Positions 1-64,000 of a stretch of 64,000 nt of DNA are shown piece after piece; positions within the stretch are counted from its first letter, which is position 1; every line of letters begins with the position of its first letter. The notes below the pieces were generated by a model. It made no database searches. It saw only the letters and a list, made by a program, of their open reading frames with translations, and was not told the DNA's origin. Both the position numbers and the translations under genes were made by a program. Location: IMG/VR virus record IMGVR_UViG_3300021399_000103, positions 64,001-128,000 of that record; one strand, written 5' to 3'. The stretch comes from a virus (Duplodnaviria; Caudoviricetes).

Positions 1-3000
1 ACTAAAATTACTATTTATGCAAAAGGTATTGAAAATGGTACTAGTAAAGAATATAGCACTGATGTTACTACAACAGCATTAACTTTAAATAATTCTGCAA
101 GTTTTTCTAATTTAAGTTTATTTGCATCTAATAGTGTTAACTTATCTTGTGAAGCTATTGGTAGAATGGATAAAATATTAAATTTCTACTTTGATGGGGA
201 TCTTGTTGAAAGTAGACATTTGTCAGCAACATCGACAGAAACTCAAACTTATAAAGTGTCTCCAGAATTAGCAACTCAAGGTGCTCATACAGTTAGAATT
301 ACTTTAAGTCAAGCTAAAATTAACACAACGACAGAGGAATGAGAAGTTCTTACAACTTTAGATCCTCTTGAATTTGAAATTGCGGTTTATGATAGTAATT
401 CAGAAAATTTAACTCCTATCATTTGGTTAGGAAGTTATCAAAATGAATATTATAATTATGATAATATTCAAATTCCATTTATGGTTTATAATCCTGCATC
501 TCCTGCAAGTACAATTGTTCATTTAAAGAAAAATGGACAGGATATTGCTGGTTCTCCAAGAACCATTGAAACAGATGCTACAAATTCTCGTTCATGGAAT
601 ATCTTTGAAATTGCCGATGCAGATATAGATATGTTAAATTATTATTCTATTTCTTGCGGAGTAACAGAAAGAACTATTACATTTATGGTCAGTCAAGACC
701 CAAATCGTTCAATGGAATTAATAAAGAAAGATGATTTGATTCTATGCTTTGACGCTACTGGTCGTTCAAACGCAGAATCTGAATCTAATAGAATTTTAAT
801 TAATGATGCATTGACAAAAGAGAACATTCCAGCAAGTTTTATTAACTTTAACTGGTATAATAATGGTTGAATTTTAGATAATGATAAAAAAGCATGCTTG
901 AGAATTAGTAATGGAGCATCTTTAGAATTACCTATTGGTTCAATGATTTTGAATGATGGCGATCATATTGATCAGCAATCAGTTAGCTTTGAAATGGAAT
1001 TTAAAGTTAGAAACGTTCAAAGCTATGATAACTTAGTTTCTAATACAACTCGTTATGAAGAGGATGACAGCTATTATGCAGCATTCTTAGCGCAGGAAAA
1101 ATATAATAACTATGACTCATTCTTACATGACTATTTACCTACTATTGGAAAAGAATATGATGATTTAAAATTTAGAAAAGTCCAAAAAGATATTAATACA
1201 GAAAGAGTTGTGGCAAAATATTATTCTGGTTCTGGCGCAACTTTAACTGGTTTTGGTATTGGTCCACAAGACGCATTCTTCTCTAATGGTACTGATACTG
1301 TAAATATTTCATTTATTGAGGATAAAGTTGTTAATTTTACAATGGTATTCTCATATCCAGATCAAAGATTATATATTTATAATAATGGTGTTATTACTGG
1401 AGTTATTGCAAATAGTATTAATGATACTTTTTCTATTGCAACAGATAAGTTAGTATTTAATTCAACATATTGTGATATTGATTTATATAAATTTAGAATT
1501 TATAAAACAGCATTAAATGTTAATGAAGTAGTTCAAAACTATGCTGTTGATAAGAAGAATATTGATATTTACGATCAAAACGCTTTAGCAAAAGCTAATT
1601 CCACATTGGGAGAATATCAATTTGATTATCAAGCAATGTTAGATTATAATGAAGCACATCCAAATGCTCCATTAATGCCTTATGTTATTTATGATACAAG
1701 CAGACAAACTTCAGATCAAATATCTTATGCTAAAAAGATTAAGATTCCTATTGATTTTGAATTTGTTAACACTCCATTAGAGCTAGCATATAGAAATGGT
1801 GAATTATTAGCTTTAGCTATTGCCGATGGATTATGTACTGCAAGTTCTAGTGCAGAAGTTAAAGAAGCTGCAGTTAAAGAATACTATTTGCATCATTGCC
1901 CTAGTTTTATTAGTACAAATGCAGAAATGGCAGTGCAAGGAACTTCTTCACAGTTCTATCCTAGAAGAAATTATAAGATTAAAACACAAACAAAATTTGA
2001 TGCAGATGAACAGAAAAGAACTCATATTTATCTAAATAGAGGACCGTTCTTAAATGATTTCTTAGCAGATCAAGAATTAACAAAGAATTTTACTGAATTT
2101 GCTGATCCTACGACAGGCGAAGCTTATAAGTTAAAATCTGCACAAGATTTCTTCTATATGGATAATTACACTGTTGGTACAACTAAATTCACAATGAAGA
2201 TTGATTATATGGAATCTTCTGGAACTTATAATACAGGTTTTGCTAATTTAGTTGCAAATGCTTATTCAAAGCATCCTTTAAGTGATTATAATAAAGCTGG
2301 AGCTTTTGCGAAAACTGTATATGAGAAAGATAGCAGTAATAGTTTTGATGAATCTAAGACTTATTATCAAGATTCAAAAGGAAAAACTAAAGCTGAAGTT
2401 ACTGCAGAAACATATCAACCAAATACATATTATATCACAGCCTATCAGCCATATCAGTTTAGTCATTTAAATGATTACAGAACTTCTGTTCAAGGTTATA
2501 GAGTTTTAGCTTTCCACAAAAAGAAGGTAGCTGGAACAAGTGGTAGTAATTATGAATTTATCGGTTTATACAACATGAACATTGACAAAGGTTCTGATGA
2601 AATGTATGGATTTAAACCCGATAAGAGCATTGTTGGTAGCTATTTAAAAAATAAAGCTATTAGCAAAAAGGCTGAATGTTGAGAATTTGAAAATAACTCC
2701 CGTACCTTCTGTTCTTTTAGAGATCCTTGGGATAGATATGAATTAAGTTTTAAAGGCCCAGATGCTGCATGGTTTGCTGAAAGAACCGCAGATTATCCGA
2801 ATGGAAGTAATGCATTAAATGGTGCGCTCGCGCCAGTTGTTGTAGATAGTTTTGAATATCGTTATAACACAAATGACGATTTTATTGATTTATTAATTGA
2901 AACTTCTACAGCAATAGATAGTCCAGATACTTGCGCGGATATTTTAAAAGAATTCGGCGTAGATATTGCTGGAAATGCTGAAGCCGCAGGAGATTTAATT

Positions 3001-6000
3001 TTAGATATTTATAAGAACTGAGAAAAAGCTGTTAAGTGGGTATGGTCTACTTCTACAAAAGATATTGCTTCTCTTGGTACTTATAATGAGATTGAAGTTG
3101 GTAATGAATATCAGCCAAATAAATATTATGTCTATAATGAATCAACAGGTGTCTATGAATTAGACTCTTCTCCTACTTACAGAGAAGGTATTGTCTACAG
3201 AAATAAAGTAAGCAGAGAAGAAACTGATACAGAAACAGGAGAGAGTATTACAATTGATGAATATGTAAATGCATTTGTTAGCGCAATTCCATATGTAAAA
3301 AATACATATTATATTAAAAATGCAGATAATACATATACCTTATCTGCCGATGATTTTGATGAGTCTTTAACATATTATCAGATTACAGAATATACAGATG
3401 AGCAACTAGCAACAAGAGCCGCAAGATTGGTAGAAAAAGATTCTGACGGAGTATTTGATCCTGCCGCTGAATATTATGTATATGATGGTAGTGTTCAGGT
3501 AAAAGATATTGTTACTGGAGTAGACACTCCAACAAAGAAGATTTCTTTAACTTCTGAATCTTATATTCCAAATACTTATTATAAAGGAAAAACTGTTGTT
3601 TATAATGGTAAGAGTTATAAGTATGATACTCAAGAATATCGTTCTGCAAAATTCTTTAATGAATTAGCAGATCATTTTGATATTGAATATCTTGCTACTT
3701 ATGTTATTATGACAGAAGTTTTTGAATGCTATGACTCTCGTGGAAAGAATTTAATGATGGCTTCTTGGGGCCCTCAAAAGGCTGGTGGAGATTACATCTG
3801 GTATCCAATTTTCTATGATATTGATACTCAGTTGGGTATTAATAATACAGGTATTCCTTCATTTGCATTTAATGTAGACGCAACAGAAGCTGGAAACTAT
3901 TCAACTTCTGATAGTATTCTTTGGATGAATTTCTATAATAGATTTAAAAAGTCTTATGTTTTACAGAAATATAGACATCTAAAGGGAATTACAACTGGAG
4001 TTCCTACAAGTTGGACTAGATTAGCTAATCCACCTCTTAAGAGTATTGACTTTATTGAGAGTTGGTATGAAACAGATCCAAACGTTTGCAATAGTATTGC
4101 AATGCGTGGTACAAGACCTATGATTGCAACAAATTTGGATGAATGGTATAAATATTTAACTATCACAAATCCAAAAGGTAAGTCTACTGGCGAAACAGGC
4201 TATATGGATGACAATGGAATCTTCATTGACGATAGTGGTAAAAATACTTACTTCTATGCATTACAGGGTGATAGATCTCAATCAAGACAACAGTTCTTGT
4301 CTAATCGTATTGAATATATTGACTCTTGGTTAAATGAGGGTAACTACCAGCGTGGTGGCGCTAATAGAATTAGAGGACGTGTTGCCGCAAACAATCCGGC
4401 AAAAACATCAGACCAATGGGTAGCGTCTGCGGAAGATCCTTACTTCAAGCCAAATGGTGAGAAATCACATGAATTTGATGCTGAATATTGGATTAATTTA
4501 ACTCCTGTTAGAAGTTCATACGTTACATTAAGTGATGATAATGAAGCTTATCCATCTCAGAAATATGATGGTATAAATCCAGTTAAATTTAATATTGACG
4601 CTATTGAGAATGGTGTTAAGAATAGTGCTAACTATCCTGAGCAGTTGTTATATATCTATGGTATGAATCAGATGGCTGATTTGGGTGAGATGCATAATTT
4701 ATACTGGCAAGAATTTGAATTATCTGGTGATGCTAGAAAATTAACGACTTTAAAATTAGGTTATGATGGTAAGGATAAAGATAATAATAACTGGTATAAT
4801 AGAAATATGAATCTTCCTACTATTCCTGGAAAGAAGCCTGAAGATGATTCTGGTTTTGGTTTACCTTTATTACAAGAAGTTAATTTAAGTAATATTACAA
4901 TTAATGCAGGCTCTCCTACATTGGATTTAACAAGTTGTGAAAAATTAAGAAATTTAAGAGCAACTGGTTCAAATTACCAAAATTTCTCATTTGCAGAAGG
5001 AGTAGCTTTAGATACATTATATTTACCAGACAGCATTACTCAACTACAATTAACAGAAGCCAACTTATTAACGAAACTTTTAACAGATTATCAAGCTCCT
5101 ACTAGAAATGCTTCTTCTGGAAAACTTGAAGCAAGACCTGGTTTATATATTGAAGGATTATTTGAAAATAATATTACAAATATTAATAATATTAAATTAC
5201 TTGGTGGCGGATTAGGATATGATAGTTATAAATTATTAGCTAAATGATATTCTATTAAAGATGCTTTAGATATTGTTGGAACAGACATTGGTAGTAATCA
5301 AATTACCATGACTAAAGTTAAATGAAGTCCATATATTCAATTAGTTGAAGGCGACACTTATATTTCAGCTGATTCTGCAAAATATTATATGGATGATGGT
5401 CACTATGGATTTGTTCCTTATTCATATAATAGAGATACTTTTAATGCTCAGGTACTAAGTGGAGAAATTTATAAATTAGATACTAGTATTCCTACTGCAA
5501 CGATTGATCAAATTGCGGACGTAGATATGCTTGCGCAAATGATTACAAATAATCATTATACAGCAGGCACTTCACAAGTTCCAAACATTACTGGTATTAT
5601 TTATGTAAATAATACTAATCCAATAGATGAATTATATATTAAAAATACTTTAGTTAAAAATTATCCTCAATTAAAATTCTTCTTTGCTAATGTAACAAAA
5701 TGTTATTCTGCAAAATTTGTTCTACCAAAAGAAGATGGTAGTTATTCTTATGTAAAATTTCAAGATGAAAATATTACAGAATTAACAATTCAAAAAATTA
5801 GTAGTTCAGATTGATTTGAAAATCCTTATAATTTATATGTTGCTGAGAAAGATAATTATGACTTCCATGGTTGGTCAACAACTAAAGATGATACTGGTTT
5901 AATTTCATCTGAAAATTGAGCTTCAGCCAAATCTTCAGTATTTGATCCAAACGTAAATGATTATATATTCTATGCTGTTTTTACTATTCATAATTATAAA

Positions 6001-7119
6001 ATGTCTTATTATGTTGGAACTGATTTAGTAGCAACAAAATATATTCCTTTTGGTTCTGTACTATCAGATCCTCAAATATTGCCATATTATACTGATGATT
6101 CATTAAATTTAACAGAAAATTATAAATTCTTAGGATGAACTCAAAATGAGAGAATTAAAATTGTGGAAAGAGCAAATCAGGCTAATCTTGTTGATTTTTC
6201 AAAAATGCTATCTGTTCAAGATTATAATTTTTACGCAGCATTTAAGAAACAATCTGTATATGATGAACCTACAGATTTAAAATATTTTGATTTTAGTCCT
6301 TTAACTTACGTAGACAAAGATCGTGTATCAGAAGCTTATGGTGATGATAGTTATAACATTACTGGATATATGATTTCTATTAAAGAAAATATGCAGTTAA
6401 AAGGTAAAATAACACTTCCTTCATATTATAATGGACTACCTGTTATAGCTATTGGCCCTACTTTTGGTAAAAATACAAATGCATCTGCGGGATGACAAGG
6501 CGGAGGTGCTGAAATTACCCATATTTTCTGAAAAGTTTCAGAATCAGAGCCTTGTAAATTAAGATATATTTCTAGTTATGCTTTTGCTGGAATGAATAAT
6601 GCACCTACAAATTTACAATATATTGAGCTTCCAGAAGGATTGCGCCATATTGACGGTTCAGCATTCTTCTGTGTTAAACATCTTAAAACAATTACTCCTA
6701 TTGTTAATGGCGATATTGAAGAAAATTCTATAATATTACCTTCAACGCTTAGATTTATTGGCGCCAACGCATTCAATGGCGCTTTTGCAGAAAGTGCTAC
6801 AATTAATCGAATTGTTATTCCGTCAGAAGTTGCTCGTTTAGGAAATAGAACTTTTGGTAATATTGATGCTATTGTTTCTTTAATTGAAATAGGTACTAAG
6901 GAACAAGGATCTTCTTTGGCGCAAATTGATGATGGTATTTTAGCAAATGGTGATAGACCAGGCAATCCAATAATTAATTATACAACAAGGGGATCAATAG
7001 AATCCTTTGTATTCTATTATAAATCACCAACTATAAGAGATGCGGTACAAGATATCGTAAATTTAAATTATATTAGAGCTAATAATGTTAGTTTTGTACC
7101 AGCAAATGATTTAGTCTAA
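1..7119 (+). CDS. Giant tail-associated protein (>2370 aa, 5'-truncated), with LamG-like region, CotH-like kinase domain, LRR and BspA-type LRR C-terminus; TGA=Trp
   Basis: ORF-track pieces 481, 898, 3427, 5389, 6163 and 6592 are all in frame 1 and separated only by TGA (11 seen: 340, 868, 2680, 3019, 5245, 5323, 5812, 5917, 6136, 6493, 6529). Contexts such as NWYNNG*ILD, AEC*EF and FLG*T fit Trp. CotH-like motifs QGTSS..YPRRNYK, DSRGKN, WYPIFYDIDT. Ends at TAA 7117-7119. Confidence 0.85.
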
Positions 7120-7138
7120 TTAAGAAAGGAGAAAAATA

Positions 7139-7360
7139 ATGAAAAAAACTGCTTTATATACTTATTTAGGCACCAACGGAACAATTACTTCTCCTGTTCA
7201 TCTTGAAGATATTTACTATATTTTAAGATATCGCTTAGAAGCGAGTGAAAATAAAGTCCTTGTAAATGATTCAACTGGTATAACAACTAAAACGATTGTT
7301 GTTTCTGCTGAAGAGGTAGATGACTGGAAAGAAATATATTCTAAGGTCAGTTCTAAATAA
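7139..7360 (+). CDS. Small hypothetical tail-module protein (73 aa)
   Basis: GAAAGGAG RBS, intact ORF directly after the giant gene. Confidence 0.75.
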   Translation: MKKTALYTYLGTNGTITSPVHLEDIYYILRYRLEASENKVLVNDSTGITTKTIVVSAEEVDDWKEIYSKVSSK

Positions 7361-7394
7361 TTTAACTTAATGAAAAATTAAGTATAATAGTTAA

Positions 7395-7419
7395 AGGGAG
7401 AGAGTTAATCTCTCTCCCT
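7395..7419 (+). terminator. Stem-loop (AGGGAGAGAG/CTCTCTCCCT), possible terminator or regulatory hairpin
   Basis: Perfect 10-bp inverted repeat between genes, preceded by TATAAT at 7383-7388. Confidence 0.5.
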
Positions 7420-7448
7420 CATTTTAATAAAGATAGGAGGAAAACTAA

Positions 7449-9803
7449 ATGATCACTTATATTGATAGTGAAAATAGACAAAACTATACGGTATTGTTTG
7501 ATAAAGCCTCTACTAAATTAGGTCTAAAGCCAATTATTGAAGAAGTTCGTGATCCAGAAACTCATGAAATAACTAAACATTATTTTAAGAGAAAATATGA
7601 TCAAACTACTCAGGCTTGAATTACAGTTGCTTGTGAACCTGATGAAATTGACACAGCAACAGATTCTATTTTAGTTGATGATGGAAATGGTAATAAAGTA
7701 CCTGTTCAGCAAATTACTAGTTTAAATGAATATTTTCAACATATTAGAGACTTAGCCGGTATGGCTATTGGTACAGGCCGTACTGGAACAGATCCATATT
7801 TTCTAAGACTTCCTCTTGATGAACCATTCTTTGAAATTAATGCTAATACTCGTGGGATTACAGTTCCTGGTGAATTAAGTCAGATTGCTGTAAGAGGTGA
7901 TAAATTAGCTGAAGTCGTATTCTTTAGAATTGATAGATATTATGATGCAGTAGATTTAAATACTCGTCATATTTATATTGAATGGGAATTACCAGATGGA
8001 ACAAAAGGTATTTCAAGAGATTTCTTGAGAGATACACAGTCTGAGAAAGATAAGATTATTTTTGGTTGGGCTATTGGTGAAGAATTAACAAAACAGGTCG
8101 GTACAATTAGATTTGCAGTTAGATTTGTTGAATGGTTTGATAATACTGTATTAGATCAGGATGATCGTAGAATTAATCTTGATACTGCTACAGAAGATAC
8201 TCAAATGCTTTATAGCTTTAGCTCATTGCCAGCAACAGTTTCAGTTGTTGACAGTTTAAATTATTCATTATTTGAAGATGATGAAGATTTAAAAGATTTT
8301 AATAGTTTAATTACAGAAGACAATATTGGAACTATGGTTCTTTATCTTGAAGATTCTGATCCAGATTCTGCTGATGAAACCGCACCAGAACTTGCGGCAT
8401 TACCTATTTATGTTAGAGATTTAACTCCAGCATTTTATGTTAATGCAAGCGCAATTGCGGAAAAAGAAAAAGAATATAAGATTAATCTTGTTAACGGTAA
8501 ACTTGAACTACGCGTTGAAGCTAATGCCGCAGATGGCGGACAAATTTCATATGTATTTGGACGTATTGCGCATACAGCCGACGAAGGTACGGGCGTAGCA
8601 GCAACCGGCGCAAGTGGTATTGTAGCTAAATATAAGTTTATTGAAGCTACAGATGTGTTTACAGATGAAGATGAGAGAACAGCAGAAAACTTTAATACAA
8701 AGAAAACTTTCTTTATGAAAGATTCTACTGGAATGTTAGCAGTTGTTAATGCTAATGATGCAGCTTTAGCAGTTGAAGAAGATCCAGATGTAGAATTCTT
8801 TGAAAGAGTTGCTTATGTTGAGGTACAATTACCAGGTCATTATTATGCTATTGCTGATAATAGAGCTGGTGGAAAGAAAGCTAATAGCGCATACAGTTCA
8901 ACATTCTATATTCCATGGGCAAGTAAGCCAGAAGTTGGGACAAAAATGGCTTCAAGATTTGTTGGCAATGAATTAGAATATACGTTAGCTGCCGATGAAA
9001 GTTTTAATGAAGCTTCTATTGATAATCGTGGTAAGACAAATTTGCGCACAAGTACTACAGTAGTTGCAGATACTAATTTAATTGAATTAAAGCCAACTGT
9101 TACTGCTGCAGAAACAGCTGGTTTAACATATACTTGGTATAAAAATGCTAATAACCATTTAATGGATAGTGGAGAAGTAGCTAATGCTGCTAATTACACT
9201 CGTCCAGAAGGATTAAAAGATGACGTTTGGGCTGCACAAGAAGCTACATTAATTGCAGATGCTGGATGGCAAGTTATTGAAGGTGCAACCGCACCTACTT
9301 ATGTAGCATCAGAACCTGGTTGCTATGCAGTTAAAGTCACAAATGATTTTAATAACAGCGTAACAACAACAGATTTATTAGATGCAGGTGCTTGTCGTGT
9401 AACAGGAATGCCTAAGATTCCATCAATTGATTGGACTTCATTTAAGGCATCAGCTAGTGCCGGCGCAATTCCAAATGCTATTGATATTGAATTAAAAGAT
9501 ATTAATGGCGATGCTGTTGATTATGATAAGATTGAATATCAGTGGCATAAAGTTACAATCCCAGATGCTGAACATCCAGGACTAGCAGCAGATTTAGAAC
9601 TTGCAACAGAAGATGATATGACTTCTCCAGCTTCTCCGGCAGAAGGAATGACTTTTGATGCTGAAGGCAAGGCTAAGATTCCATTCCAGCCTAAAGTTGC
9701 AGGTGCTTTCTTCTTAGAAGTTAGAAATACATTAAATGGTGCTACTGTTATTTATAATGGTGGTGAAGATGAATTAATTGGTACAATTCAGATTTCTGCC
9801 TAA
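7449..9803 (+). CDS. Baseplate/tail protein with BppU-N-like domain and Ig-like folds (784 aa; one TGA=Trp)
   Basis: AGGAGG RBS, ATG 7449 in frame with ORF 7761 across TGA 7617. Motif pattern F.IDRYYD.VDL...IIFGW.I...T...G.I.FAVRF. Confidence 0.7.
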
Positions 9804-9822
9804 TAGAAAGGAGGTTTAATTA

Positions 9823-10641
9823 ATGATTACAACTCCTGAAGAATATTTTAAATATTTATGGGGTATTGAAATCCAAGAACCTCTTTTAGATGAAAATGGT
9901 AATGAACAATTAGATGAAGAGGGAAATGTTATTATGGTGACAAAAAATCCTTATAATAACAAACCTCTTCTTTCTATTATATTACCATCTGATGAGAGAA
10001 CTTTTGATGTCGATCTTTCGTCAAGAACAATTTCAGTACCTACTTTTTTAAGTGTAGCAAAAGATCACAGAGCAGAAACAGTTTACTTTTTAGTAGATCG
10101 TTTCTTTGAATATAAAGATTTAGCAACAACATCATGTATGATTGAATTTATCAATGCAGAAGGTAAAGGTGGATTTTATCCAGTACCTTTCTATGACATT
10201 TCTTCATATCCAAGATATTTTTCTGAAGAAAATGGAGAACAGGTCGTGCATGAAGCCAAGATGATTATACCTTGGTGCATTGAAGGTGATGTTACTGCGG
10301 CCGCAGGTGAAGTTCAGTTTATTTTAAGATTCTATGAGTTAGATGAGACAAAAACTGAATTAGTTTATAATGTCAGAACACAAGTTGCTACTGGACAAGT
10401 TCTAGTTGGAATGGATCCAGGTGTTTTAGATGAGGCCGCTGCAGATTTAGAAGCTAATTTCGCACAACAGATTAATGATAAAATTGAACATGCAACAGCA
10501 ACAATTTATTGAACTGATTTGCCAGATAGCGAATTTAGGTCTGATTTTCAACCATCAAAATCAACGAAAAATTCTACAAATTATTCTAATGGACTTGAAA
10601 ATGCGTCACCAATGAGATTATGATTTAAGGATTCCGATTAA
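9823..10641 (+). CDS. BppU-N-like baseplate protein (272 aa; two TGA=Trp)
   Basis: Similar FLVDRFF..KDL / IIPW.I...VT...G.VQF.LRF pattern to the previous gene. Reads through TGA 10510 and 10621 to TAA 10639-10641. Confidence 0.7.
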
Positions 10642-10659
10642 GGAATCCTTATTTTTTTT
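10627..10659 (+). terminator. Rho-independent terminator
   Basis: AAGGATTCC/GGAATCCTT stem followed by a T-run. Confidence 0.75.
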
Positions 10660-53118: not shown

Positions 53119-53130
53119 ATTTACCTCCTA

Positions 53131-54105: not shown

Positions 54106-54117
54106 CTTCTTTTCTCC

Positions 54118-54468
54118 TTAATCAATTTTATAATTTTTACCTTTTTCGCTTAATGTATATATAACAGGATCTTTACCAATTTTTTCAGCAAATCCATCAT
54201 TTACCAATTTTCTTAGCGTGCCAGATACCGCTCTTGAAGAAATACCCAATCCTTCTGCAATATCTTTAGATTTTGCCATTTTAATATCATTATCTTGCAT
54301 ATACTTTAAGACAACTTTTCCATTATCTGTAATTTCTGGTGCAGAACTATCTTTTCCAGATCGTAAGATTTCAAGGTACATCTTTACATCTTCTGTCATA
54401 ATACTTTTTGCATAATCTTCATTATGTGAAATTAAATCATCAATAAAACTTAAAAATTCATCTTTCAT
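54118..54468 (-). CDS. Winged-helix DNA-binding protein
   Basis: SKDIAEGLGISSRAVSGTLRKLV..G. Confidence 0.75.
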   Translation of the reverse strand: MKDEFLSFIDDLISHNEDYAKSIMTEDVKMYLEILRSGKDSSAPEITDNGKVVLKYMQDNDIKMAKSKDIAEGLGISSRAVSGTLRKLVNDGFAEKIGKDPVIYTLSEKGKNYKID

Positions 54469-54513
54469 ATTTTTTTACCTTTCAATCATTGTAATTATAT
54501 TATAACATAATTT

Positions 54514-55401
54514 TTATTCAAAGGCAACTTTTTGATCAAATATAAATTGATCCGCATATGGTAGTGTATGCGCCCAATCAACAAATTGATGCCATTCTGT
54601 TAACTTATGATTTGCGCGCTGGGCACAAATGCTGCGTATATTCTCGTAATTCATTGTAATGGTTCTGGTTTGAAGCCATCCATTAGGCAACCAGCGCACC
54701 AATTCTTTCCAATATCGTTTATCTTTAGTTTCATTATATTTTAACCGAAGAGATTCCAAGAACCCGATAATTGTAGCTTCTGGCCAGTAGACATTATCTT
54801 CTTTTTCTCCAACAACATCCTTAATAGATATATGGTAATCAAATGGAGTGTCTCCTGTCTCGTCAATTCCTTCTTCAAAAATTATATTTGGTTCATAATC
54901 GTCAGTTTCAAAACAATCAATGGTAATTGGAGTTGAGGCTAATTTATGCATTGTTGATGTACTATTGGCTACCGTACCGACTTTGTAAGTATCAAATTCC
55001 TTGAAAAAATATAATGGTGCTGTAATATCAACACATACCTGAATTTGACGTAAAAATTTACGATGCTCTGGACCGGCTTTACAAAGTCGCATAGCTAAAT
55101 CCATATCATTTGGACCAATCCAAGCTGTTTCATAAAAATTACCTTGGCTAGATTCTTTAAGTATTCCATTCTTAAACAACCAGTTTAAACGCTTCTCTTC
55201 TTCATCACAGTATTCCTTACTTCCAAATTCTAAGTCGGGAAATAACTTATTGACCCATAAATCTGCTATTTCTAATGCGGTTAAACTACCATCTTCTTCA
55301 ATACCAAATGACGAATCAGATTTCTTCCAACTTGCAAGCGGATTACGCATTCCTCTTAATGCTCCTTCAAAATTTGATACATATGTATTCTCAAATTTCA
55401 T
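54514..55401 (-). CDS. ThyX/Thy1-like protein
   Basis: H.KFLRQI, NS.STMH, LP....QTR...NYE..R.....R..HKL.EW. Confidence 0.6.
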   Translation of the reverse strand: MKFENTYVSNFEGALRGMRNPLASWKKSDSSFGIEEDGSLTALEIADLWVNKLFPDLEFGSKEYCDEEEKRLNWLFKNGILKESSQGNFYETAWIGPNDMDLAMRLCKAGPEHRKFLRQIQVCVDITAPLYFFKEFDTYKVGTVANSTSTMHKLASTPITIDCFETDDYEPNIIFEEGIDETGDTPFDYHISIKDVVGEKEDNVYWPEATIIGFLESLRLKYNETKDKRYWKELVRWLPNGWLQTRTITMNYENIRSICAQRANHKLTEWHQFVDWAHTLPYADQFIFDQKVAFE

Positions 55402-55667
55402 TATAAATTTCCTCCAAACCCTTTAACAAAACATCCTATAATTTCTAAAAATTCATCAATATCATCTAAGTAAGCATTATTTTGATTATAGTCAGATGTT
55501 TTTAGAAAATCATAATATGAAATTATATTGACATGATATCCATAAGCATGTGCTTTTACTAACATTGCTTCTGGATTTTTACATACTAATGTTGCGTTTT
55601 CGTCCTGGCAAAGAGCCATTAGTTGTTTTGTTTTACCTGAACCAGGTTCTCCAATAATCTTTTTCAT
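55401..55667 (-). CDS. Small P-loop protein (88 aa)
   Basis: GEPGSGKT; LDDID. Confidence 0.55.
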   Translation of the reverse strand: MKKIIGEPGSGKTKQLMALCQDENATLVCKNPEAMLVKAHAYGYHVNIISYYDFLKTSDYNQNNAYLDDIDEFLEIIGCFVKGFGGNL

Positions 55668-56635
55668 TAATTCTTATTCCCCTGTGTACTATTATAACCC
55701 CAATCAGTGCTTTGATAAAAATCAATTCAATACTTCTCACGTTCATTAAGTTGAGATCTCTCGCATTTTTCAATAATTTCATACATAAATGATTCTGGCC
55801 CAATAGACTTCATTTCTGTATAAAATCTATTATTTGAAGAAGAAATACCAAGACCTGCTTTAATATGATCGCGTAATCTATTTCGTAAATCAACACTTTG
55901 ACCTATATAACACTGATTGGTTTTTAAGTTTGTAATTTTATATATTCCACAATGATTTTGTCCAGTAGGAGTTAATCTACCTAATAAATCCATTGTTGGT
56001 TTTTTATAATAAAGTTCCCATATTATTTTATTGATAGGTTCTGGATCTTTATTTAATTTTGTAGCGACTTCTTTTAATAATTGTATATCTTCTATATCTT
56101 GATCTGAAATTTTTAATTTATAATAATCTTTTTCAGATTCTTTAAGCATATTTCTTTTATCTAAATCAATTGCGGCTCTTACTTTTTCTTTTAATGTTTT
56201 TAATTCTTCATTTACAGTATTTAATTCTGCTTGTTTTGCAGCAATACTTTCTGTAAAAAGCTTGGCATTTTCTTCCATTATAGAAAGATATTCTTGTTTA
56301 TGCTTTTCTTCTGCTAATTGATATCTATATCCAGCTATCTCCGCAGACTGAGACATTCGTTCTTGCATTAAATCATATGATTTTTTATAGATTTCGTCTG
56401 CGGCCGCAGATGCCTGGGCGCTTATAGTTTCGATGTCTGCGTTAAGAGACGCCTTTCTTCGTTCTAATGCGCTAGTTTCTGTCTCAGCAGAAGCGATTTC
56501 CGCAGTTAATTTAGTTAAATTATTCTGTAATTCTTTATTCTTTTGGAGCACTTCTTCGTCTAATTTATGCTTTGGATATAAATATATTATTATACCAATC
56601 AATGCTCCAATAATTATCGCATAAATTCAAATCAT
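55667..56635 (-). CDS. Membrane-anchored coiled-coil protein with C-terminal GIY-YIG nuclease (322 aa; 2 TGA=Trp)
   Basis: AAGGAG RBS, MI*IYAIIIGALIG TM; GIYKITN..YIGQS; EREKY*IDFYQS..WGYN completes the domain only with readthrough; TAA overlaps the next ATG. Confidence 0.78.
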
Positions 56636-56707
56636 TATTTTCTCCTTAAAAAAGAAGGGGTAGATTAGTAATTACCTACCCCAGTATTTTTACAAAATTA
56701 ACTCAGA

Positions 56708-56971
56708 TTACTCAGCGTCAGCATCTGGGTCAAAGTCTAAGCCTTCCTTAGTAAGACTTAGAAGCTTGATTGCCTTATGAGAACCATCATCAAGTTCAAT
56801 TTCTGCAGGTGTTCTAACACCAAGTCCCTTACGCTGAATAGCAGAGGTAAAGATACCATCTACGCTTCTCTTTTCAAGTCCGAGTGCAGCAGCAACATCA
56901 GCAGCTGTCAAATCTTCACCATTGTGTTCCTTGAGATACATTAATACTTTCTTTGAATTTTCTTTCATCAT
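56708..56971 (-). CDS. Small HTH DNA-binding protein
   Basis: LTAADVAAALGLEKRSVDG; AAGGAG RBS; promoter at 57008-57037. Confidence 0.65.
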   Translation of the reverse strand: MMKENSKKVLMYLKEHNGEDLTAADVAAALGLEKRSVDGIFTSAIQRKGLGVRTPAEIELDDGSHKAIKLLSLTKEGLDFDPDADAE

Positions 56972-57007
56972 AATCTTTTTTCTCCTTATTTCTTTCTTTA
57001 TGTAAAA

Positions 57008-57037
57008 ATTATACCACAAATGTTTTTATTAAGTCAA
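57008..57037 (-). promoter_or_regulatory. Sigma-A-type promoter
   Basis: TTGACT, 18 nt, TGG-TATAAT. Confidence 0.65.
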
Positions 57038-57232
57038 TTATTTTTTTAAAATTTTTTGAACCATATCATCTATATCCATCATATCTTCTAAACTTAAATT
57101 ATATTTAGATGTTAGATTTATGATTTCTTCTTCCGCAGATTCTATTGATTCTTTATTTCGACCATTTTGAATAATCCGCTCTGCTGCCGCTATTCTCCTA
57201 GCTATTTTCTTTTTTAATGACTCACTTGCCAT
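57038..57232 (-). CDS. Hypothetical protein (64 aa)
   Basis: AAGGA RBS; intact ORF. Confidence 0.55.
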   Translation of the reverse strand: MASESLKKKIARRIAAAERIIQNGRNKESIESAEEEIINLTSKYNLSLEDMMDIDDMVQKILKK

Positions 57233-57280
57233 ATATTTGTTCCTTAATTTTTACAATTATATTATACATAAAATTTTTCT

Positions 57281-59236
57281 TTAAAGCAAGAATTTCTGAA
57301 TAAATTCTTCCTCAGTAATAATCGGCACGCCCAATCTTTTCGCAGTAAGATTTTTGGATGAGGTGCTTGTGTTATCGTTATTGATTAGATAACTTGTTTT
57401 TGCAGAAACAGCACTTGAAACTCTACCACCCCTGGATTCAATTTCAGACTGAAGTGCCGCTCTGTTTTTATACTGTTTTAATGAACCAGTGATTACGACT
57501 ACAATATCTTTTAAATTATCTAAATTATCTTCTTTTGCGGACGCAGGCCACTTTTCTAATGCCGCACCAGCCAAAATAGCTTCACCATAATCAAAGTTTA
57601 GGATTGAGCCTACTCGTTCTGGGCCAAAACCATCAATAGCATAAAAATCAAAGTCAGACCCCTCTTCAGTTGCATGTACAAAAGATGGAAAATCTTTGAA
57701 ATGTTTAGCCAATTCTTTTGCCTGACTCAAACCAATTAATGGTATTCCAATGGCAGAAATATATCTTTCTAATGGAATATCTGAAGTTCTGATATTTTCA
57801 ATCGCTTCAAGAATATTGTCTACAGATTTAATCCCAAAACCAGGTTTTGAAACCCACTCATCTCTATGATATTTTAACTCAAAAATATCGTGAAATTCTT
57901 TTACCCAATCCCAATCAATTAATTTTTCAAGAGTTGCTTTAGAAAGACCTTTAATATCTAAGCCTTTCTTGCCGCAAAAATGATCTAAACGATTAATTAA
58001 TTTACCAGAACAATTTGGATTTTCACAAACTAAAGTAATAGAATCAGTTCCATGCTCGTATAATGGTTCTCCGCAAATAGGACAAACCCAAGGCTGGCTA
58101 ATGTATGATTTTGTATACTCATCATCTTCTTCCGCTGATAAAATTTGCGGAATTATCATATTCGCCTTAAAAATTTTAATTTTTTGACCAACCCAGCTAT
58201 TACCGTGTAAAACACTATGCATTATACTTAAATTATGTAGTGAAGCACGTTCAATTATAGATCCATCTAATTCAACAGGTTCAAATACCGCAACAGGAGT
58301 TAAAACTCCAGTTCTACCCATAGTCCATTGAATATCTTGTAGTTTTGTTTCAACAGTTTCTACTTCTGGTTTCCAAGCAATTCCATTTCTAAAATGGTGG
58401 GATGTTTGTCCTAAAGAATTTCCATATTCAGTATCATTAAATTTCCATACAACACCATCGCAAGGATATTCATCTTTAAAAGACATAATTATACTATTTG
58501 TTGATTTAATTTCATCAACTGGTATATCAGTAATAAAATAAACTGTTTCAAACCCATAAGACTGAACTTCAATTAATTTTTCACTTAACAGCTTATAGTC
58601 ACTACCAACAATAACATCCCAAGCAATAAAAGACAATTTTCTTTCTTCTACTAACTGAGTGTCAAGAACATTTAATGCTCCTGCTGCCGCATTTCTTGGA
58701 TTTTTAAACTCATTATTTTTATTGATTTCTTCAAAATCAGAAACTTTAATTATAGCCTCTCCATCAATAATGAATTCATTTTTATATGGAATTTCTAATG
58801 GAACGTTTTGGAATTGCTTAATATGCTCAGTAATATCAGTGCCTTCAACTCCATTACCGCGGGTGTTTGCGGAAATCAATTTACCATTATTATATTTGAT
58901 GCGGACTGATAAACCATCAAGCTTTATCATAGCAATCATTTCTTGACCATTCGCAAAATCCGCAACCTCCTCGTCGGAGTGGCACTTATCTAAACTAAGC
59001 ATTGGTTTTGGCGTAATAGGAATTTTTTTAAGGAAGGGTAAAGTTGCAGTTCCTACTTGTTGCGTTGGACTATTGGATAAAATTATATTATTTTTATTCT
59101 CAAATGCGGAAAGCTCCTCTAATTTTAAATCATATTCTTGATCACTCATTATAGGACTATCAGAATTATAATACGCATCAGAAGCTTTGTTTAATTGATT
59201 TATTAAATCTGAGTATTCTTGAATATTACGCAACAT
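57281..59236 (-). CDS. ligA: NAD-dependent DNA ligase
   Basis: KLDGLS, TRGNG..G, NPRNAAAG, DGVV.K, GRTG..TPVA, Zn finger, C-terminal BRCT. Confidence 0.93.
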   Translation of the reverse strand: MLRNIQEYSDLINQLNKASDAYYNSDSPIMSDQEYDLKLEELSAFENKNNIILSNSPTQQVGTATLPFLKKIPITPKPMLSLDKCHSDEEVADFANGQEMIAMIKLDGLSVRIKYNNGKLISANTRGNGVEGTDITEHIKQFQNVPLEIPYKNEFIIDGEAIIKVSDFEEINKNNEFKNPRNAAAGALNVLDTQLVEERKLSFIAWDVIVGSDYKLLSEKLIEVQSYGFETVYFITDIPVDEIKSTNSIIMSFKDEYPCDGVVWKFNDTEYGNSLGQTSHHFRNGIAWKPEVETVETKLQDIQWTMGRTGVLTPVAVFEPVELDGSIIERASLHNLSIMHSVLHGNSWVGQKIKIFKANMIIPQILSAEEDDEYTKSYISQPWVCPICGEPLYEHGTDSITLVCENPNCSGKLINRLDHFCGKKGLDIKGLSKATLEKLIDWDWVKEFHDIFELKYHRDEWVSKPGFGIKSVDNILEAIENIRTSDIPLERYISAIGIPLIGLSQAKELAKHFKDFPSFVHATEEGSDFDFYAIDGFGPERVGSILNFDYGEAILAGAALEKWPASAKEDNLDNLKDIVVVITGSLKQYKNRAALQSEIESRGGRVSSAVSAKTSYLINNDNTSTSSKNLTAKRLGVPIITEEEFIQKFLL

Positions 59237-59287
59237 TTTTTCTATTCCTTTCTTACAACCAATTATATTATATCATAATTATTTTAT

Positions 59288-60430
59288 TTAATCAAATCAT
59301 TCTATTTTTGAACCATTAATTTGTGTTGATTTTCTTTTTTTCGCTTGATGAACAGCTTGTCTTGAAACCCCTAAATATCTACCAGCTTCTGAAAAAGAAT
59401 CAAACGGTATTTCATCTATAATACAGATAAATGGTACTTCTATTTCTTCTAATGGTTCATCTGTATAATACAAAAAGTATTTACTTTTATAACGAGTTTT
59501 TTCTCTTAAAGCCTTTTGGATTCCAGTGGTTTTGAATCCTTCTAATTGGATATCTTTTACTGTTTTATAAGTAGATTCCAATTCGCCGCCTGCGTTATAT
59601 ACAGCAATAAAACCTTTTGGATTTCCTATATACTCACCCCTTCGCTGAAGCGTTCTCAATGTAAATAACCGCTCATTTGGAGTGTAATAATACATAGGTG
59701 GTTTTTTATGTTCTATAGAATAGTTATTAAATACGTCATCATTTTGTTTATAAATTTTTATTTTTGTACATATTGGATATTCATTATTTGGTTTTGGATA
59801 TTCTAAAATATCAGAAGCAGGTGTTAAAGTTTTATCTAAACGTAATATATAAATAAATTGTTTAGTTCATGTTTTTCTAACATCTGAATATAAACTGCAT
59901 ATGCCTTCTGTAAATGGAATTGATTCAGGGCAATTATGCTTATATAAATACCATAAAGTTGTTAAGTGACGTTCTTGCCCATCCAATAGCCAAAATCCTT
60001 CAGAAATAAAATATCCTAAATATTCTCAATTTGTTGCTTGATAAATATATCCATAATTACCTTCTTTGCGGCCGGAGTAAGAAACTAGTAACCGCACATT
60101 TGGGCGGTATTTTTTTATTCATTTAATACCAAGAGAAATAGCTTGTGATTCTGAATTTTTCCCTTCTGAATCAGCCATACAAAATCTATTTAATTCAAGG
60201 TATTCTGATTTTTCTATTGGTTCTTTAACATATCTATCAAGTTTAATTTTTTCTTGAAAAGAACAACCTCATTGGAGTACTCCTACTAAAAGATTATCTT
60301 CTTTTCGGAATACTCCAAGATTAAGAATTGCTTTTTTAAATCCTACCCCAGAATAATGTCAAGCAGATGTAAATTGATATGCTTTTGACGAGTTTATCTG
60401 GTCTATAAAATATCTTTTATTTTCAATCAT
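59288..60430 (-). CDS. Mom-family (GNAT-like) adenine modification protein with a C-terminal DNA-binding-like extension (380 aa; 6 TGA=Trp)
   Basis: Manual translation: *HYSG, LELNRFCM, NSESQAIS, LVSYS...G..GYIYQATN*EYLG, EYPK. No TAA/TAG between ATG 60430 and TAA 59288-59290; contains track ORF 59297-59695. Confidence 0.75.
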
Positions 60431-60432
60431 AA

Positions 60433-62754
60433 TTATACCTTTGATACTGATTGTATCTTATCTTTTAATGTGATATTACCTGCGGCGGTGCGTCCTAAAA
60501 GCGGAATATCTTTCGCTGAAATACAGATTGATTTAGAACTACCAACTACCAATACCTGGTCTTCATCGCTTAATAAAGCGGCTGCCGCAACTTCATCATT
60601 AGATTTATAACAAATAATACCTTTACCACCACGTTTCTGTAAGACAAGATCATTTGGTGAAATTTTCTTACTGAAACCTGATGTTGAAAATATGCCAAGT
60701 GTATCATTACTATCTCTAACGACCAATGTAGCAATTACTTCATCATCATCATTGAGATTTATACCTTTTACGCCAGAAGTAGTTCTTGAAGTTGCTGAAA
60801 TCTCTGTTGAATTGAACTTAATACACATACCTTTCTTAGTAATAAGAATTATTGGTTCATCTTTAATTAAAGATACGCTGGCTAAGTTATCACCTTCTCT
60901 TAATGTGATTGCGGCGATACCTGTTTTCTTTTTTGTCTTTGTGTATTCTTCTAATGAAGTTTTCTTTACTAACCCATTTTTTGTTGTAAACAAGACATAT
61001 TTTGCGTCAGTATCTCTATAAATTGAATAGATTACTGTTGGATTTTCGTTTGGTTGCATTTGAATTAGATTTTTAACAGAAATGCCTTTTGTTGTATTTG
61101 TTCCCCCAGGAATTGAATCTACAATTAAACGATACATGTTACCTTTATCTGAAAATACCATAAGAGAATCAACTGTATTTGTACGAATCACCGCATTTAC
61201 AATATCATCAGTTGTTTTAACTCCCTTGCCACCTCTGCGTTGTGTGCGGAATGAAGTTGCTGGAACTCGTTTAATCAAACCAGAATCAGTCATAATAACA
61301 ACAACCTTCTCTGGTTCAACAAATTGAATTTCTTTATCCTCTTTTTTAATTTCAATTTGTGTTAATTCAGTTCTACGAGCATCTCCATATTTTTTAACAA
61401 GTGAAGCTAATACAATTTTAACTGTTTTATATTGTGCTTCTGTATTATTTAACCAATTTGTAATTTCTTCAATATTTGAAATTAACTGTTTTTCTTCATC
61501 CTGTATTTCAACTTTTTCCAAGTTGGCTAAGCTACTTAATCTCATTGCGAGAATTGCTTTTGCTTGTTCCTCTGAAAAGTTATATTTTTTGATTAACTCT
61601 TCTTTAGCACTTGCCGCAGAAGCTGATTTTCTAATTAATGCAACAATATTGTCAATATCTTCAAGAGCTTTTAATAAACCTTCAACAATATGTAGTCTTG
61701 CTTTAGCTTTATTTAAATCAAATTCTTTTTCTCTTTTCAAACAATTTAAAGCATTGTTTACATAAATTTCACAGCAATCTTTAAGATTTAACTCTGTTGG
61801 AGTTTTACCTACAAGCGCAACTTGATTATATGAGAAACTTGATTGAAGGTTTGTTTTAGCGAATAGCTGATTGGCTATATAATCAGAATTTCTATCACAC
61901 TCAACTACAATTCTAACACCTTTTTTATTAGTTTCATCTCTTACATCAGTAATTCCTTCGATTTCTTCAGCAACTTCACCAATTTCCGCAATTAAAGATT
62001 CTACGTTTGTTCCATAAGGAATTTCATAAAATATAAGATTATTTTTTTCTTTCTTATACTTCGCCCTAATTTTAACTGAACCATGACCTGTTTTCATAAT
62101 GGCTGGAATATCGTTTTTATTGATGATAATTCCACCTGTTGGAAAGTCCGGGCCAGGTAATGTTGGCTCTTTACCATCAATATAATCGTTAATTGCTTGC
62201 GCAACTTCAATTAAATTATGCGGCGCCCAAGAGCAAGCTAAAGCTACACCAATTCCACTATTTGGATTACAAAGAAGATTTGGAAAATAAGATGGAAGAA
62301 CTACTGGTTCTTTATCTAATTCATCATATGTAGGGACAAAATCAACATTATTCTTCTTTAATCCTTGTAACAATCCATCTTCTGAAATTTTTGCAAGTCT
62401 TGCTTCTGTATAACGTGCGGCCGCAGGGCCATCTCCGACGATATTACCATTACTTCCATGCCAGTCAATAAGAGGATAACGCATAATCCAATCCTGAGAA
62501 AGTCGAGCCATTGCGCCATAAATTGAACTGTCACCATGCGGGTGTAATTTACCCATTACATCGCCTACAATACGAGCAGCTTTAACGTGCGGCTTTGAAT
62601 ACGTGCGCCCCTCCATAAGACAAGAATATAAAATACGTTTTGCTACTGGTTTTAACCCATCTACGGCACTGGGGATGGCACGATCGGAATTAACGGCATA
62701 CGCATATTCAATAAAATTAGTATGTAATTCATTATAAATATCGTTATTTTGCAT
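60433..62754 (-). CDS. gyrA: Type IIA topoisomerase subunit A (gyrase A-like)
   Basis: DGLKPV, HPHGDSS, AAARYTEARL, GPDFPTGG, QRRGGKG GyrA-box-like motif. Confidence 0.92.
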   Translation of the reverse strand: MQNNDIYNELHTNFIEYAYAVNSDRAIPSAVDGLKPVAKRILYSCLMEGRTYSKPHVKAARIVGDVMGKLHPHGDSSIYGAMARLSQDWIMRYPLIDWHGSNGNIVGDGPAAARYTEARLAKISEDGLLQGLKKNNVDFVPTYDELDKEPVVLPSYFPNLLCNPNSGIGVALACSWAPHNLIEVAQAINDYIDGKEPTLPGPDFPTGGIIINKNDIPAIMKTGHGSVKIRAKYKKEKNNLIFYEIPYGTNVESLIAEIGEVAEEIEGITDVRDETNKKGVRIVVECDRNSDYIANQLFAKTNLQSSFSYNQVALVGKTPTELNLKDCCEIYVNNALNCLKREKEFDLNKAKARLHIVEGLLKALEDIDNIVALIRKSASAASAKEELIKKYNFSEEQAKAILAMRLSSLANLEKVEIQDEEKQLISNIEEITNWLNNTEAQYKTVKIVLASLVKKYGDARRTELTQIEIKKEDKEIQFVEPEKVVVIMTDSGLIKRVPATSFRTQRRGGKGVKTTDDIVNAVIRTNTVDSLMVFSDKGNMYRLIVDSIPGGTNTTKGISVKNLIQMQPNENPTVIYSIYRDTDAKYVLFTTKNGLVKKTSLEEYTKTKKKTGIAAITLREGDNLASVSLIKDEPIILITKKGMCIKFNSTEISATSRTTSGVKGINLNDDDEVIATLVVRDSNDTLGIFSTSGFSKKISPNDLVLQKRGGKGIICYKSNDEVAAAALLSDEDQVLVVGSSKSICISAKDIPLLGRTAAGNITLKDKIQSVSKV

Positions 62755-62992
62755 TAATTAACTCCTCTCCATTAATTATTAATAATTTAATTTGATTAGA
62801 ATAAAATTCTAAATAGGTATTGGGTTTATGATATTTTTCTAATAGTGAGATTCCTTTTTGAATATTGTTAATTCCAATATTGATATTACAAAAATCACAA
62901 TGAATATGCCAAGGCGTTCTACCCCATTCGTCTAAACAAATATAACATTCATTTCCACAATTTGGACAGACTATTATTTTTTTATTTTGCAT
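62744..62992 (-). CDS. Small Zn-ribbon protein
   Basis: CPNCG...CDFC. Confidence 0.55.
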   Translation of the reverse strand: MQNKKIIVCPNCGNECYICLDEWGRTPWHIHCDFCNINIGINNIQKGISLLEKYHKPNTYLEFYSNQIKLLIINGEELINAK

Positions 62993-63212
62993 TAACTACC
63001 TCTAGTTTATCCCAGGTTGTGACATAAACTCTATTGTTCCATAATACTCTAACATAATATCCATAAAAATTGTAAAATTCATTTACATATTCTACAATTT
63101 CATGAGCGGGAATATTTGGATATTTTAATGCTGCTTGAGTCATAAAATCTTCGTCATATATTTCTCTCAATGTTCTTAATTTTACATTATTCATGCCATA
63201 CTTCCTCATCAT
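62982..63212 (-). CDS. Hypothetical protein
   Basis: Operonic ORF; start uncertain. Confidence 0.5.
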   Translation of the reverse strand: MMRKYGMNNVKLRTLREIYDEDFMTQAALKYPNIPAHEIVEYVNEFYNFYGYYVRVLWNNRVYVTTWDKLEVVNAK

Positions 63213-63486
63213 TATATATTGAATCTTTAAATCTATAATTTTTCCAATGATATAATTTCATTAAAGCTATATATCTGCCAAATATATTTCTATTTGAATA
63301 ATAATTTTTTAAATTATCCCAACAGAATTTTATATAAGGATAATCACCCAGTTTTAATAATGGAATAAAAGTATCTGGATTATTTTCATCAATTACCTGT
63401 TTTACAATTTTCTTTGGTAAATAAAAATCTCCATCTCTATCTTTGTACCAAGTTTCATTATTCGGCGTTATATAATCCCGCTTCAT
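63187..63486 (-). CDS. Hypothetical protein (99 aa)
   Basis: AAGGAG RBS; overlaps the gyrB end. Confidence 0.5.
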   Translation of the reverse strand: MKRDYITPNNETWYKDRDGDFYLPKKIVKQVIDENNPDTFIPLLKLGDYPYIKFCWDNLKNYYSNRNIFGRYIALMKLYHWKNYRFKDSIYNDEEVWHE

Positions 63487-64000
63487 TGCTATGCTCCTTA
63501 ATATATTCTTTTCTTAAACTTGCACTTTGGCCCATTAAAGTTTCAAATAGCTGATCTGTGGCTGTAATATCTTCAATAGTGATTTGCTTAATAATTCTAT
63601 TATTAGGGTCAGTTAAAGTTTCTTCCGTCTCTTCGACCGACATTTCACCAAGTCCTTTAAGTCTATTAACTAGATATTTTACACCCTTATTCTGGTTTCT
63701 AAATTCATCCAGAGCCGCATCATCTTTTAAATATTTATAACCCTTATTTCCAGGTAAAGTAATTTTATAAAGCGGCGGCACTCCCGCATAGACATATCCA
63801 TCCTCAATTAACTGTGGACAGAAGTTCCAGATAAATGTGTAGAACAGGTTTTTGATATGCGCACCATCAACATCAGCATCAGATTCAATAATAATTTTGC
63901 CATATCTCAAATCTTCTGGACGATATGTAATTTTCATTGTCTTAAGATCAATAGTCAATCCAAAAGCATCAATCATTGACATAATTTCTGCATTCTTTTG
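63458..64000 (-). CDS. gyrB: Type IIA topoisomerase subunit B, C-terminal part (5'-truncated by the window)
   Basis: DADVDGAHI, PPLY, KGLGEM, LMG.....RKEYI. Confidence 0.9.
   Translation of the reverse strand, partial: QKNAEIMSMIDAFGLTIDLKTMKITYRPEDLRYGKIIIESDADVDGAHIKNLFYTFIWNFCPQLIEDGYVYAGVPPLYKITLPGNKGYKYLKDDAALDEFRNQNKGVKYLVNRLKGLGEMSVEETEETLTDPNNRIIKQITIEDITATDQLFETLMGQSASLRKEYIKEHSNEAGLYNAE

Follow-up and report, generated by a model that had tools for sequence, protein, structure and literature searches.

We think it very probable that the phage represented by IMG/VR record IMGVR_UViG_3300021399_000103 (176,419 bp, 33% GC, CheckV completeness 94%) gives TGA two meanings, stop and tryptophan, in a host that uses code 11, that it reads the tryptophan codons with a suppressor tRNA whose gene is split by an intron, and that the distribution of these codons among its genes results from drift together with exclusion from particular genes. 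The 64,000 bp of DNA analysed here, which we call the window, are bases 64001-128000 of that record. The plus strand of the window carries virion, adhesin and lysis genes to about 33.5 kb and the minus strand carries replication genes beyond that point (Table 1); the GC skew changes sign at the junction of these two arms.

The two meanings of TGA

The first-pass annotation had described TGA recoded to tryptophan as dense in tail and lysis genes and absent from core replication genes. The partition itself stands: the late plus-strand genes contain 111 TGA and 67 TGG codons, and 18 core genes of the replication arm, identified from Pfam and PHROG, contain 0 and 93, respectively (Fisher p = 4.6e-29). 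The counts given for single genes were reproduced as well, from the extreme ratio in the LamG gene at 13935-16130 (Table 1) to the complete absence of TGA from DnaE (0 TGA/18 TGG), NrdD (0/6), LigA (0/10), GyrA (0/4), the RecJ-like DHH protein (0/5), DnaB (0/4) and primase (0/3). What did not hold up is a simple split by strand or by tail and lysis function. Some late genes are TGA-poor (1 TGA/9 TGG in the gene at 7449, 11/19 in the gene at 166-7119, and the CHAP lysin at 24056), and four minus-strand genes of the window, encoding the membrane-anchored protein at 33507, RuvC, the GIY-YIG protein and Mom, have TGA codons (Table 1). The two gene sets are equally rich in out-of-frame TGA triplets: 23.9 kb of core sequence has 97 and 482 of them, and 31.0 kb of late sequence has 91 and 514. 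The purging of TGA is thus restricted to the reading frame.

Calling the genes in code 4 instead of code 11 raises the coverage by ORFs of at least 80 aa from 72% to 96%, a comparison that the same annotation had suggested; TAG read-through (code 15), also tried, gave a coverage of only 77%. Alignments confirm that the in-frame TGA codons mean tryptophan. Seven TGA sites of the endolysin lie opposite W in 120 of 120 homologues, TGG is the commonest non-TGA partner at 39 of 49 TGA sites in the relatives that were fetched, and among related phage loci the TGA sites are faced by TGG 1025 times, by TGA 518 times and next by Tyr 138 times. Glycine as the meaning of TGA is ruled out by the homologue alignments. 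Proteomics is available for phages in which TAG means glutamine (PMC9523058).

TGA is also used as a stop. About eight small early genes outside the window, all with good ribosome-binding sites, terminate in TGA. The two members of one early paralog pair have the same end residues but different stops, TGA and TAG. Two further early genes keep the position of their TGA end across several relatives, the read-through tails of which share nothing, and two TGA-ended early genes overlap the next gene stop-to-start. Within the window, the TGA of a tandem TGA-TAA that closes an 85-aa early ORF (Table 1) is probably read as a stop as well. TGA stops in early genes are to be expected in a cell with a working RF2 and speak against a host that natively uses code 4; these true stops make code 11 the most likely code of the host. 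The earlier proposal that the early genes suit a code-11 cell and that the late genes need suppression supplied by the phage is supported by these stops and by the phage's own UCA tRNA (below).

What kind of bacterium might this host be? The GH25, CHAP, CW_7 and choline-binding domains that the phage encodes (Pfam) point to a walled Gram-positive cell. Relatives of its RpoD-like protein that carry host names are scattered Bacillota only (about 49-53%), and a search of the lysin clusters for host organisms returned no named one. The intron core pattern (below) matched four short contigs in bacterial MAGs, which are possibly mis-binned phage and were left out of the host assignment. The capsid candidate resembles SPbeta YonB (a PDB sequence search with it gave no match), and stretches of the sequence turn up in RNA runs whose labels read gut, bovine gut and sheep gut. 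The phage is probably an SPbeta/E3-like, rumen-type tailed phage of a walled code-11 bacterium of the Bacillota.

Table 1. Features of the window; paired numbers are TGA/TGG codon counts
Feature	Position	Strand	Remarks
Late arm: virion, tail, adhesin, lysin and holin-like genes	166..32078	+	Open only with TGA = Trp; 111/67
LamG-domain tail/adhesin-like protein	13935..16130	+	15/1; first TGA at codon 6
Paralog of the 13935 LamG gene	19136-21472	+	12/1; first TGA also at codon 6
CHAP/CW_7/choline-binding lysin-like protein	24056..25996	+	TGA-poor, 4/11
GH25-CHAP-CW_7 endolysin	30191..31777	+	11/9; seven TGA at invariant Trp
SigmaA-type promoter-like site	32098..32126	+	TTGACT-17-TATAAT; 11/12 match
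Hsp20-like gene	32340..32714	+	Weak Pfam match (E 0.006); 0/1 here and in 19/19 relatives
tRNA-Trp(UCA), predicted, exon 1	32747..32780	+	3' end = U34
Group I intron, 196 nt, ORF-less	32781..32976	+	P1-P9.1; U34.G wobble in P1; terminal G
tRNA-Trp(UCA), predicted, exon 2	32977..33014	+	C35 to G73; CCA end not encoded
Holin	33059..33466	+	PHROG 13712; no Trp codon
Two-way terminator behind holin	33467-33508
Membrane-anchored protein	33507..34088	-	4/0
RuvC-like Holliday junction resolvase	34143..34667	-	4/1
Replication and nucleotide-metabolism arm	34901..64000	-	Core genes 0/93; dUTPase-like, NrdG/D, DnaE, RecD-like, RecJ-like, primase, DnaB, LigA, GyrA, GyrB 3' part
Tandem TGA-TAA closing 85-aa early ORF	45867..45872	-	TGA probably a stop
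TM, coiled-coil and GIY-YIG protein	55667..56635	-	TGA at codons 3 and 303; 2/2
Mom-family DNA modification protein	59288..60430	-	Between gyrA and ligA; 6/2

The suppressor tRNA and its group I intron

The decoder of TGA is predicted to be a tRNA-Trp(UCA) encoded at 32747-33014 and split after U34. Default ARAGORN reported no tRNA in the window, and the 28 tRNA genes for 19 amino acids that it lists outside the window include no normal Trp tRNA; direct reading of the DNA 3' of the Hsp20-like gene gives two tRNA halves. Joined without bases 32781-32976, these halves make a 72-nt RNA whose minimum-energy fold is a cloverleaf with the loop CU-UCA-AC and with A1-U72 and G73, which we take to be tRNA-Trp identity elements in Bacillus. 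The split tRNA is present once in the genome. The Hsp20-like gene led to 19 relatives in IMG/VR, and every one of these encodes a UCA tRNA at the same place, 15 of them with the intron and 4 without it, and in three of the intron-less relatives the loop is identical to the predicted spliced loop; the exons show compensatory changes. A search of IMG/VR with a 16-base exon/intron pattern returned chance matches for the most part.

The 196 intervening bases fold as a group I intron with a P1 that contains the U34.G pair, P2, the P3/P7 pseudoknot, P4-P6, P8, the P9 helices and a terminal G. The 53 proposed pairs, placed on 12 related sequences, are paired in 97.8% of 636 cells (42% or less in slid controls), and as the structure was drawn from these same 12 sequences its weight rests not on that percentage but on both-side changes, which occur in 21 of the 53 pairs, including one in P7 (C-G to G-C) and two in P3. 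All 12 sequences have U34.G and the terminal G, and a P10 is given by pairing of the guide UUG with the exon-2 CAA. The intron size, the GNRA-capped P2 and P9 and the insertion site presumably recall the Azoarcus intron (subgroup IC3). In relatives the intron is 201-206 nt long, except for two of 322 nt. More distant phages have the same intron, often with a long loop-1 insert that looks like a homing-endonuclease gene, and with a fully paired P1 where the clade of the 196-nt intron has a conserved U33.U mismatch. An Rfam scan of 31500-34000 gave no Intron_gpI match at E <= 1 and missed the tRNA as well; according to Williams 2020, the Rfam Intron_gpI seed was without bacterial introns.

Is the intron needed for recoding? 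The four intron-less relatives are still recoded and keep TGA in RuvC, so it is dispensable; one of them (L039) nests within the intron-bearing clade (support 0.975) and has a different tRNA body. Four metatranscriptome assemblies contain the phage or its relatives, and their contigs cover the Hsp20-like gene in 4 of 4 runs and parts of the intron in 3 of 4. One contig of a relative spans the upstream flank into the intron and is thus unspliced RNA or DNA; an exon-exon joint was not seen in these assemblies, which consist of contigs only and so cannot reveal transcript starts, transcript levels or the absence of such a joint.

The tRNA lies in a TGA-free unit behind the promoter-like site at 32098 that consists of a short ORF, the Hsp20-like gene, the tRNA and the holin. 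This site is present in 17 of the 18 relatives whose upstream DNA was examined and is similar to those 5' of dnaE and gyrB, an arrangement that would fit expression of the tRNA unit with the replication genes and before late translation. Similar sigmaA-type sites, only partly conserved and overlapping terminator-like hairpins, occur at 13885 and 19080, 5' of the two most recoded tail genes. A candidate late-promoter motif (seven sites, with a matrix that separates poorly from background) was not found before RuvC, Mom, the amidase (below) or the tRNA. Promoter matches are no proof of timing, as the phage encodes its own RpoD-like sigma and similar sites stand before recoded tail genes.

Drift, exclusion and alternative explanations

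The above counts clearly demonstrate that TGA is partitioned among the genes, but is it more frequent anywhere than mutation alone would make it? Lys, Gln and Glu codons, which are themselves shaped by codon selection, served as the control for drift; their A-ending share is about 0.8 in both arms. By this measure about 78% of the 93 core Trp codons should be TGA and none is (p 1e-62), and the late genes, with a TGA share of 0.62 in the window and 0.70 outside it, are somewhat depleted as well. No gene exceeds the AT-drift expectation for TGA (lowest p 0.3), and the LamG gene at 13935 has 94% A at its Lys/Gln/Glu third positions. In relatives that recode TGA, the gene for the YonB-like capsid protein has no TGA and 52 TGG (16 loci), its upstream neighbour 0/47 and the major-tail-like gene 0/20, as compared to 49/67 in TerL, and the capsid, upstream neighbour and major-tail-like genes are also TGA-free in the phage itself. 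The pattern fits exclusion of TGA from early or high-copy genes and drift elsewhere, and not an enrichment in tail genes. The density in the tail genes is what AT drift gives once TGA is tolerated, and so is by itself no proof of a selected regulatory gate; a block on early translation of the late genes follows as a consequence, selected or otherwise.

The order of events that we propose is as follows. The genes needed first, free of in-frame TGA and some of them ending in TGA, would be translated in the code-11 cell. The sigmaA-type promoter at 32098 would express the TGA-free unit with the opal-suppressor tRNA-Trp(UCA), whose precursor would self-splice its group I intron and then receive CCA from the host. 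No RF domain (PF00472) and no class I Trp/Tyr synthetase domain (PF00579) was found in the genome (94% complete by CheckV), so charging and termination would be left to the host, whose TrpRS would charge the tRNA. The suppressor tRNA would then compete with host RF2 at UGA. In genes translated after the tRNA has built up, TGG would have drifted to TGA to about the AT-mutational equilibrium, and early or many-copy genes such as those for capsid and major tail would be kept TGA-free because read-through is incomplete. Late dependence on the suppressor tRNA would arise automatically, and the intron would be a tolerated passenger.

Is the code perhaps that of the host? We give almost no credence to a host with code 4 as its native code (a member of the Mollicutes or one of the code-4 Eggerthellaceae, PMC13462651) and a partition that records gene history. 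Bacteria that read UGA as Trp and lack prfB do occur in the gut, but such a host is at odds with the depletion of the core genes calculated above and with the TGA ends of early genes; moreover, the peptidoglycan lysins exclude wall-less hosts, 46 of 80 TerL relatives are apparently TAG-recoded, and in phages that match a recoded host about 90% of genes contain TGA (Borges et al., bioRxiv 10.1101/2021.08.26.457843; Nat Microbiol 2022). It is also very unlikely that the split tRNA is not the decoder and that UGA is read through by the host tRNA-Trp(CCA) or by an odd Trp(CCA)-like phage element. The lack of a spliced product in the RNA contigs would agree with this, as would a degenerate element in the tRNA array region (genome 143983-144053) that has an anticodon-like hairpin reading CCA, but that element has no cloverleaf fold and no exact match in IMG/VR, the compensatory changes in exons and intron and the position of a UCA tRNA in 19 of 19 relatives favour the split tRNA, and genes with up to 24 TGA would hardly be made by near-cognate read-through. 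Is the intron then a timed or condition-sensing switch, with splicing (GTP, Mg2+) setting when the code changes? Probably not, and we regard this as improbable: the anticodon would exist only after splicing, 15 of 19 relatives have retained the intron, with compensatory changes, and the conserved P1 mismatch could slow splicing, but an intron in an essential tRNA should be conserved even if it regulates nothing, the loop-1 inserts of distant copies look like those of a mobile element, and the intron-less relatives, L039 inside the intron-bearing clade among them, manage without it.

A selected translational gate, in which TGA is actively kept in certain genes and delays harmful or late functions, is compatible with drift and exclusion and makes a stronger claim; it is a serious possibility, and we nevertheless lean against it. 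The best candidates, as a hypothesis, are RuvC, Mom, an amidase in the early arm (genome 130578-131234; 7-9 TGA, no TGG) and a sigma-like gene that heads the late arm (PHROG 5767, E 6e-50). The TM-GIY-YIG protein is another TGA-bearing exception within the early arm. RuvC, Mom and the amidase are packed closely, with hardly a gap, between genes that lack TGA (the RuvC ATG overlaps the stop of the TGA-free ORF upstream, and Mom starts 2 nt past gyrA), yet they are TGA-rich; 25 of 26 RuvC loci, which are kin and not independent, have TGA at codons 17 and 28; and three Agate gene families show a significant preference for TGA according to Borges et al. The sigma-like gene contains 3 TGA and is preceded by a conserved promoter of the sigmaA type, and TGA there would make late transcription itself suppressor-dependent, but Pfam finds no sigma domain in the protein, and its function is predicted from the family label only. 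Against a gate, too, RuvC, Mom, the amidase and the two TM proteins have together 25 TGA and 5 TGG, exactly the AT-neutral share (0.83 as compared to 0.86), the holin gene that follows the tRNA contains no Trp codon, and the lysin segments of intron-less relatives are TGA-poor (0/5 and 1/10). A two-step cascade, in which ribozyme splicing creates the UCA anticodon, the tRNA then unlocks the sigma-like factor, RuvC, Mom and the amidase, and the rates of splicing and suppression set the early-to-late transition, is doubtful. Drift with exclusion remains our preferred account, and the codon statistics sharpen a question that the field faces: has the recoding of late genes been selected as a timer, or is it drift that the phage tolerates?

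Comparison with known systems

The nearest annotated terminases (45-48%) are those of the Enterococcus phages EF1 and H1 (H1, 48% identity in TerL), Geobacillus virus E3 (48%) and phAss-1 (45%; proposed Phassvirus, PMC10607447), and these phages have the same head-gene order. phAss-1 shares recoded late genes and the lack of a synthetase of its own, but it recodes TAG to Gln and its suppressor tRNAs are uninterrupted as described; EF1 differs in not being recoded. Of the 80 TerL relatives, 25 are TGA-recoded by our thresholds, so with the TAG-recoded relatives among them (above) the code varies inside the phage family, in line with published plasticity.

The intron resembles the Leu.3Ug introns of Williams 2020, which share the length of about 200 nt, the U at -1 in a U.G pair, the terminal G and the site CUU| after the third loop base; the insertion site is that of its tRNA-Leu(UAA) class. 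The difference is in the host gene, here a phage stop-codon suppressor; Williams 2020 drew on bacterial and archaeal assemblies, and the accessible text names no suppressor. The Lak megaphages (Devoto 2019, PMC6784885) are likewise stop-recoded gut phages with introns in tRNA genes, which the accessible part of that paper terms enigmatic, naming Tyr and Thr cases and making no group I or suppressor link. A literature search, with most subscription journals outside its coverage, found no publication that describes a phage suppressor tRNA interrupted by a group I intron.

The late-gene partition is itself already published in kind. Yutin et al. found the same recoding pattern in crAss-like phages, and Borges et al. 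described the same partition and an early/late model for the TGA-recoded Agate and Jade phages. Our phage shares with the latter the gain in coding density in code 4, TGA facing Trp, the partition and a (predicted) phage suppressor tRNA; its size and TGA pattern are compatible with the Agate clade, to which it is likened by description, and it has neither the RF1 nor the TrpRS of two Jade genomes. The additions to the published pattern are the split suppressor tRNA, interrupted by an intron and missed by default ARAGORN and Rfam, the evidence for drift with exclusion in the codon counts, and the few genes named above that could be gated. Of the code-4 genomes of Borges et al., only 35% yielded a suppressor tRNA, and these authors suspected noncanonical tRNAs; a tRNA split by an intron is a concrete reason why suppressors could be missed in roughly two out of three phages that recode TGA.

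Trp-tRNA-like elements and other RNAs

The tRNA array of the phage holds, in addition to a phage-encoded tmRNA, a degenerate element like tRNA-Trp(CCA), in which the motif CTCCAA occurs twice, one copy lying inside a perfect 5-bp hairpin. No cloverleaf fold was obtained for this element, and no exact match to it was found in IMG/VR. The GOLLD-like RNA of the array scores 83.9 bits, which is below the gathering score, and the three YrlA-like matches reported with the array's RNAs are all weak.

The suppressor tRNAs of nine related-phage loci (L039, at 6400-6494, and L056, L057, L060, L070, L071, L073, L078 and L087) carry an extra variable-arm hairpin with TCCA in its loop, unlike the window's own suppressor tRNA. 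This hairpin resembles a second Trp anticodon arm. Two other related loci have a longer variant of the intron (below).

Features in the window, the whole virus record (genome; L001 and L002 are stretches of it beyond the window) and related-phage loci (L049, L055)
Feature	Position	Strand	Remark
Candidate late-promoter motif GGNCAA ... TAA ... TTTA	window 7345, 10660, 27726		visible at all three sites
Small-gene cluster, Met/Asn/Gln-rich and hypothetical	window 27835-30186	+	before lysin
Free-standing GIY-YIG endonuclease gene	window 50933-51571	-	0 in-frame TGA, 5 TGG
TM, coiled-coil and GIY-YIG protein	window 55667-56635	-
Near-consensus sigmaA-type sites	genome 2464-11436 and 173660	+	oriented against immediate-early - strand genes
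RpoD-like sigma-70 factor of phage	genome 134698-135730 (L001:6701-7732)	-
DUF2828/DUF7788/vWA protein	genome 138198-139793 (L001)	-	adjoins tRNA array
Degenerate tRNA-Trp(CCA)-like element	genome 143983-144053 (L002 about 3984-4054)	-	in tRNA array
tmRNA	genome 147276-147625 (L002:7275-7626)	-	in tRNA array
GOLLD-like RNA	genome about 152554-152986 (L002:12555-12987)	-	in tRNA array
322-nt intron variant	L049:3588-3909 and L055:5516-5837		P6 loop with structured-looking 120-nt insertion

Sigma factor and promoter-like sites

The phage RpoD-like sigma-70 gene has no in-frame TGA, and the relatives of its product form a large, phage-type family. Both LamG paralogs (tail/adhesin-like genes) are preceded by an identical layout (window 13880-13915 and 19067-19110), in which a sigmaA-type site has its -35 box in the loop of a terminator-like hairpin; only some relatives have this layout. 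The near-consensus sigmaA-type sites elsewhere in the genome share a common downstream sequence.

Small genes and GIY-YIG genes

Trp codons are scarce in the small-gene cluster, and its tested members had no Pfam match. The free-standing GIY-YIG gene lacks TGA in the window copy, whereas its homologues in related loci contain it. The TM-GIY-YIG protein is reminiscent in layout of membrane-anchored anti-phage nucleases, but PADLOC gave homing-endonuclease and coiled-coil matches only. Its role is possibly superinfection exclusion.
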